Source: Crocinitomicaceae bacterium
GTDB taxonomy: Bacteria; Bacteroidota; Bacteroidia; Flavobacteriales_D; Crocinitomicaceae
NCBI GenBank assembly: GCA_036825545.1
Contig: DAISYB010000020.1
Span: 11 to 64,010 of the forward strand
Reading direction: 5' to 3'
Length of the DNA: 64,000 nt
The translations under genes and the position numbers were made by a program. The notes under the pieces were generated by a model. The model was not told where the DNA came from. It searched no databases and worked only from the letters and a program-made list of their open reading frames with translations. Shown here in pieces: positions 1 to 4,109 of the stretch; the stretch's first letter is position 1; every line of letters starts with the position of its first letter.

Positions 1-50
1 GTTTACTTTAAAAAGTCGGCACGCCGCCAAGCCCGCTGCCGTTATTTGCA
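1..50 (+). repeat. 3' portion of an attC-like site cut by the window edge, ending in the core-like sequence GTTATTTGCA
   Basis: A GC-rich imperfect hairpin (cggca 17-21 / tgccg 37-41) runs directly into GTTATTTGCA (41-50). That 10-mer is the exact reverse complement of TGCAAATAAC at 3204-3213, at the far end of the downstream two-gene unit. Confidence 0.45.
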
Positions 51-86
51 ATATTGCACCACAGTAAGCATTAAACGATTAATATT

Positions 87-94
87 TATTTTTG
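87..94 (+). promoter_or_regulatory. Candidate Bacteroidota sigma-A -7 box (TATTTTTG, consensus TAnnTTTG) upstream of the methylase gene
   Basis: Exact match to TAnnTTTG. It lies just before an A8 run and the in-frame region that encodes the conserved methylase N-terminus. Confidence 0.35.
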
Positions 95-164
95 AAAAAA
101 AAGTCATCTGGAACTAGAAAAAACATATAAACCATTTTTACGCTGGGCAGGAGGCAAAAATTGG

Positions 165-923
165 TTGTTAAAGAATTTAAACGATTACTTACCTAAAAAG
201 GGATTCAATAATTACATAGAGCCATTTTTAGGAGGGGGATCAATATTTTTTTATTTATCTCCGAAAGATGCAATTCTATCAGATCTAAATAGTGAATTGA
301 TTGAAACATATTGTATTTTAAGAGACTCTGTGGAGCCAATTATTGATGTATTACAAACCTATTCGAATACAGAATCATTCTACTATCAAATTCGATCAAA
401 AATTCCAAAATCGGAAATTGAAAGAGCTGCAAGATTTATTTTCTTAAATCAAACATCATTTAATGGTATTTATCGAGTAAATCTCAAAGGAGAATACAAT
501 GTCCCATATGGATTTCGAACGAAAAATTTTCTTCAGGAAGAAAACCTTCGTTCTGCTAGCGAATGTTTAAAAAGTGTAATTATCAAATCAAGAGATTTTT
601 ATCGCTCTTTGGAGGATGTCAAAAAAGGTGACCTTGTAATTCTCGATCCACCATACACGGTTACTCACAATAATAATGGATTCATTAAATACAATGCAAA
701 ATTATTCGATTTAAATGCCCAAATTGCCCTAAGTAAATACATTGATTGTGTCAATGAAATAGGAGCAAATTATATCTTGACTAATGCCGCCCATGAAGAT
801 ATAAGAAAGATTTTCACTCGAAAACATAACGTTATTGAAACAACGAGTAGAGCAAGCTTAGTTGGTGGGAGTAAGGCCAAAAGAGGTAAATATGACGAAT
901 TTATTATTACAAACATTCATTGA
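165..923 (+). CDS. Dam-family (D12 class) N6-adenine DNA methyltransferase
   Basis: Motif I is EPFLGGGSIFF and motif IV is DPPY (645-656). NQTSFNGIYRVN is typical of Dam/DpnM enzymes. The conserved KPFLRWAGGK box is encoded in frame upstream (129-158) of the first canonical start, so the true start is probably near 108 (CTG). The coordinates given are those of the ORF track. Confidence 0.85.
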   Translation: MLKNLNDYLPKKGFNNYIEPFLGGGSIFFYLSPKDAILSDLNSELIETYCILRDSVEPIIDVLQTYSNTESFYYQIRSKIPKSEIERAARFIFLNQTSFNGIYRVNLKGEYNVPYGFRTKNFLQEENLRSASECLKSVIIKSRDFYRSLEDVKKGDLVILDPPYTVTHNNNGFIKYNAKLFDLNAQIALSKYIDCVNEIGANYILTNAAHEDIRKIFTRKHNVIETTSRASLVGGSKAKRGKYDEFIITNIH

Positions 924-925
924 AA

Positions 926-3202
926 ATGGACGATAACACTAGAATATCTTTATCAGGTAAATTACTCAGCGGGAATGAGTTAAAAAAAGAACTGAATTCC
1001 AGAAAAAGGGAATTTATTTATGAAAGTGTACCAAAGTCTTTAAAAGATGAATTTGAATCAGATGGATGGAAATTAGATAAGGAATTTAAAACAAAGTATA
1101 AATTCAAAAAACTAAAAGAAACTGATATTCAATTTGAAGATCAAGTATGGACATTACTCGCAAATTTGGGTTTTACATTTTTAAACAAAGACAGAAATTT
1201 CAATATCCCATATGATAAAGAAGGTAACACTCAACAAATTGACGTAATAGCGAAGGATGATGAATCAGTTTTAATTATTGAATGTAAAGCTTCGAAGGAG
1301 AAAAATAAAAGGGCTGATTTCAAAAAGGATCTGGAAGCATATTCAAGTAAAATAGGTGGTATTTTGCAATCTGTCAAAGAATTATTTCCAAATTCAAAAT
1401 TAAAATTCAAGTTCATCCTAGCAACCTCAAATTATGCGGTTAGCGAACTAGATTTAGAACGACTAGCAAACATTGGTGGCATTCATTTGGACGAAGAAGC
1501 AATTAATTATTACGGTGAAATGCATAGTCAAATTGGTTTAGCTGCGAGGTATCAATTATTAGGCAGTCTTTTTGAAGGTCAAGAAATTCCCGAAATTCAA
1601 AATGAGATCCCTGCAATACAAGGTAAAATGGGAGGACATACGTATTATTCATTCTCAATTGAACCTGAAAAGCTTCTTAAAATAGGATATGTATTACACA
1701 GAAATAAAGCCAATAGAAAAATGATGCCAACATATCAAAGAATTATTAAGAAGGCTCGAATTAAATCTGTTCAAGAATTTATAGATAATGGCGGTTATTT
1801 TGCAAATTCTATAATAATTAGTATTACAACGAATAATAAGAAATTAAAATTTGACAGAGCAAATACTCAAGTTAAAGATTCCATAGCAGATATTGGTATT
1901 CTTCATCTACCAAAAAAATATAGATCAGCTTTCATTATAGATGGCCAACATCGGTTATATGGATATTCAAACTCTACCTATAAAGCAAAAAATTCAATTC
2001 CTGTTGTTGCGTTTATTGATTTGGATAGAGAAGAACAAGTGAAATTATTTATGCAAATAAATGAAAATCAGAAAGCTGTCCCAAAAAATTTAAGAAATAC
2101 TCTTAATTCTGATCTTCTATGGACTTCTGATAGCTTGCTAGATCAATTTAGAGCAATAAAATCCAGAATTTCATTGGAATTAGGTGAGAACAGAAATTCA
2201 GCATTGTATGACAGAGTTATTATTGGTGAAAATAAAAAAAACAATCTAAGATGTATAACTACCGATACAATTATTAGAGCAATTGGAAGAACAAACTTTT
2301 TAGGAAAAGTTACTAAAACTAAAATTGAAAATCCAGGCTCATTTTACAGAGGGGATTTGGATGATTGTTTCGATAAATTATCTGATTTCCTTATTAGGTC
2401 TTATTCTTATTTAACCGATAACGTCCAAGAAGAATGGAAACGTGGAGAAGATAGTATAATTGGTATAAACAAGGGGGTGTATGCCTATATTATGATCTTA
2501 GGTGATATTGTTGACTTTCTTCTAGAAAACAATATTTGTACCCCTAAGAGTTCATCAAAAGTGTTGTTTGAGGAAAGCAAGACATACATAGACCCGATAA
2601 TTAATTTTTATCTTGAAATTAAACCTGATACTGCTGAAGAATTAAAATCAAAACACGGATCAGGTGGAGATACAAAATACTGGCGTACCTTGCAGTTGGC
2701 TGTTAGAAAAGTACATCAAAATTTCAATCCATTAGGATTAGATGATTATCTAAAAAAGGAAGCTCGAGAGTACAATACTGAAGCATTCAAATATATTAGA
2801 GATATTGAAACTTATTTTAAAGATGATTTTAAAAATAGACTCGAGGATTTTTTCGGTTCTTCTTGGTTTAAAAAAGGTGTGCCGCCTCAAACTGCAAAAA
2901 AAGCTAATGAACTTGCTTTCGACAAAAATTTGACAATTGAAAATGTGGAAGATGAAGTTGACGCATGGGATTGTTTAACAATAATTGCATATAGATCCAT
3001 TGCTGTAAAGAATTGGAGAGAAATCTTTGAAGAACATTATACGAGACCGGGTGAAGAAAAAATGCAAGGAGGTAAAGAAGCAAAGACTGAATGGATGGTA
3101 AAATTGGAAAAACTAAGAAATGAAAACTTCCATCAATATTCAGTGACCGAAGAAGAATTTGATTTTTTACAATCTATTCATGAATGGCTGATTGAAAAAT
3201 AA
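926..3202 (+). CDS. Large fusion protein: N-terminal PD-(D/E)xK nuclease-like core, central DGQHR (DndB/DpdB/ParB-like) domain, C-terminal HEPN-like Rx4H motif
   Basis: IDVIAK..VLIIECK gives D at 1241-1243 and ExK at 1280-1288. FIIDGQHRLYGY places DGQHR at 1940-1954, followed by FMQINENQKAV. LRNENFH lies at 3116-3133. The ATG at 926 is 2 nt after the methylase stop codon; the TTG at 920 in the ORF track is less likely. Confidence 0.7.
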   Translation: MDDNTRISLSGKLLSGNELKKELNSRKREFIYESVPKSLKDEFESDGWKLDKEFKTKYKFKKLKETDIQFEDQVWTLLANLGFTFLNKDRNFNIPYDKEGNTQQIDVIAKDDESVLIIECKASKEKNKRADFKKDLEAYSSKIGGILQSVKELFPNSKLKFKFILATSNYAVSELDLERLANIGGIHLDEEAINYYGEMHSQIGLAARYQLLGSLFEGQEIPEIQNEIPAIQGKMGGHTYYSFSIEPEKLLKIGYVLHRNKANRKMMPTYQRIIKKARIKSVQEFIDNGGYFANSIIISITTNNKKLKFDRANTQVKDSIADIGILHLPKKYRSAFIIDGQHRLYGYSNSTYKAKNSIPVVAFIDLDREEQVKLFMQINENQKAVPKNLRNTLNSDLLWTSDSLLDQFRAIKSRISLELGENRNSALYDRVIIGENKKNNLRCITTDTIIRAIGRTNFLGKVTKTKIENPGSFYRGDLDDCFDKLSDFLIRSYSYLTDNVQEEWKRGEDSIIGINKGVYAYIMILGDIVDFLLENNICTPKSSSKVLFEESKTYIDPIINFYLEIKPDTAEELKSKHGSGGDTKYWRTLQLAVRKVHQNFNPLGLDDYLKKEAREYNTEAFKYIRDIETYFKDDFKNRLEDFFGSSWFKKGVPPQTAKKANELAFDKNLTIENVEDEVDAWDCLTIIAYRSIAVKNWREIFEEHYTRPGEEKMQGGKEAKTEWMVKLEKLRNENFHQYSVTEEEFDFLQSIHEWLIEK

Positions 3203-3203
3203 A

Positions 3204-3290
3204 TGCAAATAACATGCACTAAGCAAAATGGCGCAACAATTACTCTCGAAAGAAAGCGCCACATTGCCTAGTGCAGAACCGTTAGAGTAC
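3204..3290 (+). repeat. attC-like imperfect palindrome A (end of cassette 1, start of cassette 2)
   Basis: TGCAAATAAC, then 1 nt, then arm 3215-3234 tgcactaagcaaaatggcgc, a 21-nt loop, and arm 3256-3275 gcgccacattgcctagtgca (17/20 paired). This is followed by gaacc and GTTAGAGTAC (3281-3290). Confidence 0.6.
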
Positions 3291-3333
3291 ATCACCCACA
3301 CCCGGCCTACTCCCGAAATAAATTTGGAAAATA

Positions 3334-3354
3334 GTAACTTATAAGTTACATTTG
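3334..3354 (+). promoter_or_regulatory. Perfect 16-bp palindrome (likely TA operator) overlapping a -7 promoter box
   Basis: GTAACTTATAAGTTAC (3334-3349) is a perfect palindrome. TACATTTG (3347-3354) matches TAnnTTTG. The toxin ATG follows 4 nt later. Confidence 0.5.
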
Positions 3355-3358
3355 CATC

Positions 3359-3727
3359 ATGAATCAAAAAGTCCGCGAAGTTGTTGAATTTGAGAATCAC
3401 TTTAGTGAATTCCTTATGAAGCAACCCAAAAAGGTTCAGAACAAGATATTTAAGATAATTGAAGCGATTGAAACACTTGAAAGAGTGCCGAGCAATTATC
3501 TGAAAATGCTTGTTGGAACCAATGGACTTTATGAAGCAAGGATCCAATTAGGATCTGATATTTGGAGAGTATTTTGCTTTTTTGACAATGGAAAACTGGT
3601 CATTTTATTAAATAGCTTCACAAAGAAGACTCAAAAGACTCCTAAAAATGAAATTGAAAAGGCACTGCAATTGATGCAGAAGTATCACGCCAGTAGGCGG
3701 ACAGGTTATGACACAAAAAAGAAATGA
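3359..3727 (+). CDS. Type II toxin, RelE/ParE superfamily (HigB / phage Gp49-like)
   Basis: 122 aa. The pattern LYEARIQLGSDIWRVFCFFDNGKLVILLNSFTKKTQKTP is typical of Gp49/HigB-type toxins. The gene sits directly upstream of an XRE-type HTH gene. Confidence 0.8.
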   Translation: MNQKVREVVEFENHFSEFLMKQPKKVQNKIFKIIEAIETLERVPSNYLKMLVGTNGLYEARIQLGSDIWRVFCFFDNGKLVILLNSFTKKTQKTPKNEIEKALQLMQKYHASRRTGYDTKKK

Positions 3728-3728
3728 C

Positions 3729-4019
3729 ATGAGCACAAGAAGTTGGAAAGAAATCAAAGATGAAGTATACGGTAAAAAAGGTACTTCTCGTCGTGATGAG
3801 TTGGAGCGTGAATTCGAGTCATTTAAGATCGGGTTGCTTCTAAAAAAGGCTCGGGAAGAGAAACACTTAACCCAAGAACAACTTGCGGAATTAGTGGATA
3901 AGAAAAGAACTTACATTTCGAGAGTTGAAAATGATGGGAGCAATATGACGCTCAAAACATTATTTGAAATTGTCGAAAAAGGTTTGGGTGGAAAAGTTAA
4001 AATATCCATCCAAATTTAA
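3729..4019 (+). CDS. XRE-family helix-turn-helix antitoxin (HigA-like)
   Basis: LLLKKAREEKHLTQEQLAELVDKKRTYISRVENDGSNMTLKTL is a canonical XRE HTH. The ATG at 3729 is 2 nt after the toxin stop. The alternative in-frame start at 3708 would overlap the toxin gene. Confidence 0.8.
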   Translation: MSTRSWKEIKDEVYGKKGTSRRDELEREFESFKIGLLLKKAREEKHLTQEQLAELVDKKRTYISRVENDGSNMTLKTLFEIVEKGLGGKVKISIQI

Positions 4020-4026
4020 TTTAGAC

Positions 4027-4109
4027 GTACTCTAACACACAGTAAGTAAAATGGCGCACGAACATACTCAAGAGATTGCGCTACTTCGCCTACTGTGGGA
4101 TCATTAGTC
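4027..4109 (+). repeat. attC-like imperfect palindrome B (end of cassette 2)
   Basis: GTACTCTAAC (4027-4036) is the reverse complement of 3281-3290. Then 1 nt, arm 4038-4058 cacagtaagtaaaatggcgca, an 18-nt loop, and arm 4077-4097 tgcgctacttcgcctactgtg. This is followed by ggatc and ATTAGTC, where the core G is replaced by A. Confidence 0.6.

Follow-up and report, generated by a model that had tools for sequence, protein, structure and literature searches.

The 64,000-nucleotide stretch of DNA analysed here, referred to as the window, comes from a Crocinitomicaceae bacterium (assembly GCA_036825545.1, contig DAISYB010000020.1, positions 11 to 64,010 of the forward strand). Close to its left end, a Dam-family DNA methyltransferase (methylase) gene at positions 96–923 is followed by a gene at 920–3202 that encodes a 760-residue protein with DGQHR and nuclease-like motifs, which we call the effector. 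A first-pass annotation, made from the sequence, described the effector and overlooked the methylase gene directly upstream, the stop codon of which overlaps the effector start. This upstream, coupled methylase defines the purpose of the effector. The two genes and the parts of the effector are as follows.

92–104, forward strand: TTG (92–94) and a run of eight A (A8, 95–102); one base more than in the closest homologue puts this start out of the methylase frame.
96–923, forward strand: gene for a Dam-family (D12 class) N6-adenine DNA methyltransferase (TIGR00571 dam, E 4e-58; MethyltransfD12, E 5.5e-41).
920–3202, forward strand: effector gene, 760 amino acids; the TTG start at 920 overlaps the methylase stop (TTGA), with an alternative ATG at 926.
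920–1594, forward strand: PD-(D/E)xK domain (residues ~1–225), from the fold model, Foldseek, Pfam matches in the family and motif conservation.
1136–1138 (E73), 1241–1243 (D108) and 1280–1288 (E121-x-K123), forward strand: PD-(D/E)xK catalytic candidates, conserved motif residues.
1607–2506, forward strand: DGQHR/DndB-like domain of the ParB-Srx superfamily (residues ~230–529), from profile matches; its C-terminal half is helical.
Within this domain, forward strand: QR (residues 273–274), DGQHR (residues 341–345, nucleotides 1940–1954) and FxxxN (residues 377–381), motifs conserved in homologues.
2507–2764, forward strand: helical linker (residues ~530–615); helices confidently predicted, no family match in Pfam and profile scans of the protein or in scans of 64 family members, and no fold match in the Protein Data Bank (PDB) or BFVD.
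2765–3199, forward strand: probable Swt1-like HEPN domain (residues ~616–760), with R733-N-x3-H738 (3116–3133) at the end of the penultimate helix.

When the sequence was re-checked, every motif residue quoted for this reading frame by the first-pass annotation was found at its claimed position: E73, D108, E121-C-K123, Y272-Q-R274, D341-G-Q-H-R345, N381/Q384/K385 and R733-N-E-N-F-H738. An exact look-up of the window effector protein in the assembly collection returned no entry.

Domain composition of the effector

The restriction-endonuclease-like pattern that had been read in the N-terminal region is borne out by structure prediction. In an AlphaFold2 (AF2) model of the full protein, built from a 32-sequence alignment, residues 1–200 have a predicted local distance difference test score (pLDDT) of ~88 and show an alpha-beta-beta-beta-alpha-beta order, consisting of helix 68–82, strands within 87–124, helix 135–155 and strand 162–170. 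E73 is situated in helix 68–82, D108 at the strand pair 104–112, and E121-x-K123 in strand 116–124. The top Foldseek matches of this domain in the PDB (Cdn1, VC1899, AF1548, Card1, Can2, Hjc, McrC, EndoMS and MGME1) are all PD-(D/E)xK nucleases, with probabilities of up to 1.0 and a best E value of 4e-3, computed for the whole 760-residue query. The Pfam scores of the window protein as a single sequence are all under the cut-offs (Card1_endonuc 1.2e-3, NERD 6e-3, Hjc 0.019). When 64 divergent homologues were scanned singly, seven matched Hjc (best 1e-5), six Card1_endonuc, four NERD and three HSDR_N_2; a PDB sequence search with the family profile gave a spurious match alone (E 0.046). The motif residues are conserved in a set of 71 divergent homologues with 27–52% identity, D108 in 68, E121 in 64, E73 in 60 and K123 in 54. 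On the model, the N-terminal domain is a PD-(D/E)xK nuclease fold that is predicted to cleave DNA and, judged by its sequence relatives, it is a generic nuclease module and not of the site-specific type.

The central domain is, by its sequence profiles, unambiguously DGQHR/DndB-like, as had been proposed. The DGQHR model TIGR03187 covers residues 232–529 and scores 149 bits (cut-off 58.85; E 2.2e-43), and the Pfam DndB model (PF14072) matches residues 230–392 with 2.5e-17 and 63.4 bits against a cut-off of 29.1; PF14072 is also matched by 63 of the 64 family members scanned. The more specific models give a different picture. DpdB (NF041060) aligns with residues 230–514 at about 1e-21, and its 76.7 bits are far under the equivalog cut-off of 300; TIGR04172 (DGQHR_dnd_1) reaches 84.9 bits with a cut-off of 450, and TIGR03233 (DNA_S_dndB) did not match the effector in the profile scan. 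Because the TIGR03187 and DpdB models extend to about residue 529, some 130 residues of the stretch that was formerly unassigned belong to the helical half of the DGQHR domain. The ~290 residues without a recognisable motif in the first-pass annotation thereby shrink to ~90–110 (around 530–615/640). A DndB-like protein has been found to bind ATP and GTP (PMC12704722).

For the C-terminal region, the first-pass annotation had claimed an HEPN domain on the basis of the R-x4-H motif. Its support comes from the family: HEPN_Swt1 (PF18731) is matched at E ≤ 0.01 by 20 of the 64 homologues (best 1.2e-7) and is the sole family to recur in the C terminus of the members scanned, without a competing family. 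In sampled members, the scores are 21.8–26.2 bits over residues ~622–730, compared with a gathering score of 27.5. The predicted helices are a long one (617–653), a second (656–670), a helical insert, a helix at 724–738 that ends in R733...H738, and a last helix at 744–759. This placement fits the HEPN motif as described, where helix 3 ends and before the loop to helix 4 of a four-helix bundle, in a survey of the superfamily (PMC3710099). R733 is kept in 56 and H738 in 52 of the 71 divergent homologues. A separate AF2 model of residues 475–760 has a pLDDT of 87.7. Given family-level matches and no confirmation from the fold search, we regard residues ~616/640–760 as a probable Swt1-like HEPN domain, for which RNase activity is predicted. 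Since single-sequence matches are below the cut-offs for both the nuclease and the HEPN domain, the two assignments draw on family-level and structural evidence.

The coupled methylase and the wider family

The window methylase is 30% identical to E. coli Dam and keeps the GATC contacts R124, N120 and P134, with conservative changes at the contact positions L122, K9 and Y119. From these residues, its mark is probably N6-methyladenine in GATC. There is no second Dam gene in the 64-kb window. Among the 4-nucleotide palindromes of the window, CCGG (observed/expected 1.63) and GATC (1.32; 7.8 sites per kb outside the low-GC islet described below) are over-represented, and CTAG and GGCC are the most depleted (0.73 each).

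To place the pair in context, 76 related genome loci were retrieved, five of which have no upstream sequence. A homologous Dam-family methylase lies upstream of the effector in 68 of the remaining 71, on the effector's strand in every locus but L047. The commonest spacing is a 4-nucleotide overlap (20 loci), as in the window. All-against-all clustering of the neighbouring open reading frames revealed no other conserved neighbour across the 76 loci. By this count, the linkage to the upstream methylase is near-obligate, and it comes with translational coupling.

The start of the window methylase is unusual. Its frame opens only at nucleotide 96, and the first canonical start in that frame, TTG at 165, comes after the conserved KPFLRWAGGK segment (nucleotides 129–158); homologous methylases start 5–12 codons before this segment. 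The closest homologous locus, L078, with an effector 90% identical to that of the window, has one base fewer at the A run, and its TTG is in frame. The A8 run may reflect an error in sequencing the homopolymer, a frameshift that inactivates the methylase, or a tract prone to slippage or phase variation, and in the last case the run might make the system phase-variable. A Bacteroidetes-type TAnnTTTG box overlaps nucleotides 87–94.

The effector belongs to a large family. A word-indexed search gave more than 3,900 matches, of which the best 120 are nearly all 756–784 residues long, 57–90% identical and mostly from Bacteroidota. An exhaustive phmmer scan of 1.84 billion cluster representatives yielded 2,019 matches with E ≤ 1e-3, of which 511 have E ≤ 1e-30. 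Most align from about residue 15 to about residue 758, and nearly all of the 511 clusters are ~760 residues in length. The distribution over phyla is sporadic. The 76 loci are mostly from Bacteroidota, with others from Acidobacteriota, KSB1, Nitrospirota, Spirochaetota, Clostridia, Arcobacteraceae, Methylococcaceae, a deltaproteobacterium and many Alphaproteobacteria at ~32% identity. Full-length homologues are present on five plasmid records. None was found in 50,697 phage records, and a phage origin was rejected on this ground.

The residues of the central domain are the best conserved, with Q273-R274, D341, G342, Q343 and R345 invariant and H344 and N381 present in 70 of the 71 divergent homologues. 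Of 66 homologues taken from the genome loci, 65 have an intact R...H motif and 54 an intact DNase motif. Point changes have degraded the DNase motif in 11, among them Pedobacter panaciterrae (EDKE) and three with EDER, and most of the 11 retain the methylase. A census of the motif states in 245 full-length members gave the following distribution.

All three motif sets present: 165 of 245 members.
HEPN motif not aligned: 43 of 245.
DNase motif lost, DGQHR and HEPN motifs kept: 32 of 245.
Both nuclease motifs lost: 4 of 245.
DGQHR motif lost: 1 of 245 (kept in 244).

The R...H motif is aligned in 197 members, and one nuclease motif is lost in 75. These states indicate that the ParB-like site is the constant core and that either nuclease can be lost, a pattern that fits a putative switch as the core, to which effector parts are added in modular fashion. 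Whether loss of one nuclease motif is compensated by the other was considered and set aside, with four double losses against ~7 expected under independence giving no clear signal. Frameshifts fragment the effector genes of L051, L057 and L058, an insertion of ~700 nucleotides does so in L061, and in L030 a truncated methylase stands beside an effector with degenerate motifs (ENQR, DSQHR). The broken genes suggest that the module decays often.

In nine loci (L004, L005, L007, L008, L009, L011, L017, L047 and L053), the effector gene has a complete DpnII (GATC) cassette beside it, with a DpnII endonuclease (Pfam DpnII, 4.5e-95) and, in the usual case, a second methylase of the DpnA type. In most of them the genes form a tight operon in the order Dam methylase, DpnII, effector and DpnA-type N6_N4 methylase; in L007, dpnM, dpnII, the effector gene and dpnA touch or overlap one another. 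L053 has its DpnII gene after that of the effector, and L047 has the cassette upstream, on the other strand. Compared with the window, the effectors of these loci are ~57% identical and the Dam methylases only ~30%. Related effectors are paired with more than one Dam subfamily, a bona fide GATC cassette among them; for this reason, what the effector needs is probably the mark itself and not a particular methylase protein.

Other neighbourhoods vary. In L035 (2154–8346) and L046, the effector directly follows a Septu-like pair of a PtuA ATPase and a PtuB HNH protein (PADLOC 2.5e-45 and 3.8e-40), and L035 has a 406-residue D12 methylase of a different subfamily in the same string of genes. In L037, the PtuA/PtuB pair is situated further downstream of the effector. 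The conjugative plasmid pNL1 of N. aromaticivorans (L077, 4905–12262) encodes a full-length homologue with 30% identity, in which an arginine replaces the catalytic lysine (E-C-R). Just downstream of it, on the opposite strand, is a gene cluster that encodes an ATP-binding protein, a radical SAM protein, a further DGQHR protein and one more ATP-binding protein. At least six loci, namely L023 (8951–10141), L027, L030, L033, L048 and L056, encode a second, shorter DGQHR protein of ~390–415 residues, which stands alone and lies ~0.6–2 kb downstream of the effector. These proteins resemble TIGR04172 (E values of up to 4e-64, under the equivalog cut-off), with no dnd genes nearby.

Two further genes adjoin the effector in the window.

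3359–3727: gene for a Gp49/RelE-like toxin, directly downstream of the effector (Pfam Gp49, 8e-22).
3708–4019: gene for an HTH_3 antitoxin, overlapping the toxin gene by 20 nucleotides.

A relative of the antitoxin occurs near one of the 76 loci (L033) and a relative of the toxin near none, so the toxin-antitoxin pair is an independent neighbour and was rejected as a part of the system. The GC content is 30–32% in the methylase-effector pair, ~36% in the toxin-antitoxin pair and 40–44% further in (positions 1–4100 compared with 5000 onward); the left boundary of this low-GC islet lies outside the window. The 90%-identical relative is flanked by genes unrelated to those of the window, and together with the low GC content this makes the module look horizontally acquired. 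Promoter and terminator scans gave background levels, and Rfam and tRNA scans of the window gave nothing.

Proposed mechanism and competing explanations

We think it fairly likely that the two genes at 96–923 and 920–3202 constitute a self-contained, mobile, two-gene defence module akin to a restriction-modification (R-M) system; this confidence attaches to the general class and is lower for the details. In such a module, the Dam-family methylase would mark the host DNA as self, most likely at GATC. The DGQHR (ParB/DndB-like) domain would bind a nucleoside triphosphate (NTP) and DNA and act as the sensor or switch for the mark. On meeting unmarked foreign DNA, the switch would license the generic, non-site-specific PD-(D/E)xK DNase to cut that DNA, and it would license the HEPN RNase too, a second output or fail-safe that would act in the manner of growth arrest or abortive infection. 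What the data show are the domain identities (for HEPN at family level), the conserved motifs and the methylase coupling; the mechanism itself is inferred. The toxin-antitoxin pair beside the module in the window and the Septu pairs of L035, L046 and L037 add a defence context. There are precedents for both couplings. In SspE, GmrSD and BrxU, the nuclease is driven by a ParB-like domain (PMC4619093, PMC10853773), and where an HEPN domain is fused to a restriction nuclease of an R-M system, the HEPN survey proposed a suicide or backup arm (PMC3710099).

Several observations weigh against this interpretation. The DGQHR core is modelled poorly (pLDDT 30–60) and gave no fold match, so the backing for a ParB-like fold comes from the sequence profiles. 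HEPN_Swt1 scores only 12.8 bits (E 0.15; gathering score 27.5) against the window protein, and Foldseek searches with the model of residues 475–760 found no HEPN structure, the best E values being 0.94 in the PDB and 1.2 in BFVD. The start of the window methylase is frameshifted and the effector looks fully intact, which gives the frameshift its importance and is unexpected if the effector kills unmethylated cells. The conflict holds unless there is a sequencing error or slippage that restores expression. No avoidance of GATC is seen in the 64-kb window (observed/expected 1.32). A plain GATC restriction enzyme would be redundant beside DpnII, with which the effector is found in nine loci, and this coexistence also complicates a simple rule of cutting unmethylated DNA. 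About 15% of the members have a degenerate DNase motif, mostly with the methylase still there, and the pNL1 homologue has no adjacent methylase; these two groups imply that a plain logic in which unmethylated DNA is cut is not the whole story. Finally, a literature search on DGQHR, DndB-like, ParB-like and HEPN fusions produced catalogue-level mentions and no characterised member.

A more specific version, which we put forward tentatively and consider unlikely, is that the effectors form a new, methylation-gated class of immune effectors, in which the central ParB-type NTP switch reads the Dam state and couples restriction-type discrimination to abortive infection at the RNA level. NTP-driven dimerisation would then create a composite HEPN RNase site, as well as a DNase pair where the DNase has been kept. 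That the DNase would be optional is suggested by the 32 members that lack its motif and keep DGQHR and HEPN.

The effector could instead be an ordinary Type II endonuclease, probably specific for unmethylated GATC, in which the PD-(D/E)xK domain does the work and the DGQHR and HEPN-like parts bind DNA, dimerise or act as a scaffold and have neither NTPase nor RNase activity. Adjacent methylase and nuclease genes in one operon, the layout of a Type II system, are present in the window and in 68 of the 71 loci, and the stop/start overlap of the pair is classic for such systems. The PD-(D/E)xK motif is intact in most members, and the HEPN fold has no confirmation from the structure searches. Conservation argues the other way, as DGQHR (244 of 245 members) and R...H (65 of 66 loci) are conserved at least as well as the DNase motif (54 of 66), and the 32 full-length members without a DNase motif retain both other motifs. 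The nuclease also resembles the generic Card1, Hjc, NERD and the HsdR N terminus instead of site-specific enzymes, and nine loci already encode DpnII. We regard an ordinary Type II enzyme as improbable.

The pair could also be mainly a selfish addiction module of the post-segregational killing kind, in which the multi-nuclease poisons the cell and the methylase is the antidote, so that the islet would be stabilised and phages not excluded. R-M systems are known to act as addiction modules. The module is small, mobile and low in GC, it appears in varied contexts and on plasmids, and in the window a toxin-antitoxin pair adjoins it. These features are compatible with defence as well. The frequent point inactivation of the DNase while the methylase is kept, and the plasmid copy without a methylase, are at odds with a strict dependence of poison on antidote, and we consider addiction as the module's function distinctly improbable.

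The DGQHR domain is the most conserved part of the protein, and DndB is reported to repress its modification operon under modulation by ATP (PMC4507180, cited in PMC10853773). The effector might accordingly be read as a DndB-like regulator that binds DNA and an NTP and controls the expression or activity of the adjacent methylase, much as DndB controls the dnd genes, its nuclease-like domains being vestigial. This is very unlikely in our judgement, as two thirds of the 245 members keep the nuclease motif sets on both sides of the DGQHR domain, no helix-turn-helix is recognisable in the effector, and its size is twice that of DndB, with the DndB and DpdB equivalog models far under cut-off; the effector gene is also downstream of the methylase gene and translationally coupled to it. 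A MutH-like nuclease for methyl-directed repair or processing at hemimethylated Dam sites, which the pairing of a Dam-family methylase with a PD-(D/E)xK nuclease could bring to mind, has hardly any probability given the sporadic, islet-like distribution across phyla with changing neighbourhoods, the lack of mutS or mutL linkage in the neighbour clustering of the 76 loci, and an HEPN-like RNase domain and defence-island neighbours that are unlike housekeeping repair.

Relation to known defence systems

Database entries for the family are named "DGQHR domain-containing protein" or, wrongly, "DndB". A PADLOC scan (PADLOC-DB 2.0.0, 2023) gave a partial DpdB match alone for the effector, with no known system covering the pair. 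The first-pass annotation had called the architecture unusual, which overstates the case, as the family is large and conserved and fusions of ParB-like, PD-(D/E)xK and HEPN domains were noted in 2013 in two surveys (PMC3632139, PMC3710099). Such ParB-nuclease-HEPN fusions were catalogued computationally and have been uncharacterised since; the module is widespread and compact. If the R-M-like interpretation is true, the pair would be a very compact defence system of two genes and ~3.1 kb, found in many phyla and absent from PADLOC-DB 2.0.0. A single protein would then combine restriction of DNA with an RNase and an NTP-dependent switch of the ParB-like type. It would also offer a tractable model for the role of DGQHR/DndB-type ParB domains in DNA-modification systems, and for whether a restriction-fused HEPN domain is a backup suicide arm, as proposed in 2013 on comparative-genomic grounds.

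With DndB, DpdB and generic DGQHR proteins, the effector shares the TIGR03187 match, the QR, DGQHR and FxxxN motifs and a DNA-modification partner. A fusion of a ParB-like with an HEPN domain has also been described for DndB itself (PMC3632139). The effector differs from DndB and DpdB in its additional N-terminal PD-(D/E)xK domain and about twice the length, and its partner is a base methylase instead of a phosphorothioation or deazaguanine system. Membership in DndB proper or DpdB was rejected, since the effector falls short of the equivalog cut-offs and the 76 loci show no linkage to dnd or dpd genes.

DGQHR/COG1479 domains have been recorded in fusion with PD-(D/E)xK, HNH and HEPN domains and in linkage to R-M systems (PMC3632139). 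The HEPN fusions in the catalogue of Anantharaman et al. (2013), as far as its available text goes, share with the effector a Swt1-like HEPN domain with R-x4-H, a fusion to ParB-like and restriction endonuclease-fold domains and a link to methylases; that text contains no experiments and lists Saro_3948, in which a Swt1-like HEPN domain is fused to ParB (PMC3710099). The order PD-(D/E)xK, DGQHR, HEPN and the near-obligate pairing with Dam are not described there. Saro_3948 is compared here through this published description, and the N. aromaticivorans homologue that we found is the one on pNL1.

The DpnII-type R-M system (DpnM, DpnII and DpnA) has a self-marking methylase of the Dam family in common with the module, and its cassette genes adjoin the effector in the nine loci. 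In contrast to the DpnII and MboI endonucleases, to which it is unrelated, the effector is three times larger and multidomain, and it coexists with DpnII instead of replacing it.

SspE, GmrSD and BrxU fuse a nuclease to a ParB-like domain that binds NTP and carries the motif DGQ(H/Q)R, and they read the modification state of DNA; by analogy, the effector may follow the same logic. SspE is paired with a separate modification module, SspABCD (PMC4619093, PMC10853773). These proteins combine DUF262 with an HNH-type DUF1524, whereas the effector has a different ParB-like subfamily, a PD-(D/E)xK nuclease, an extra HEPN domain and an adenine methylation partner. GmrSD and BrxU attack modified DNA, whereas the effector must tolerate the mark of its own methylase. 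Membership in this group was rejected, as GmrSD_N (PF03235) is matched by one of 64 members (6e-4) and DUF1524 by none. The best structural matches of the N-terminal domain, Card1, Can2 and Cdn1, are generic PD-(D/E)xK nucleases that are switched by a fused sensor domain. The effector has neither a CARF domain nor CRISPR linkage, and the predicted sensor in its place is the ParB-like domain.

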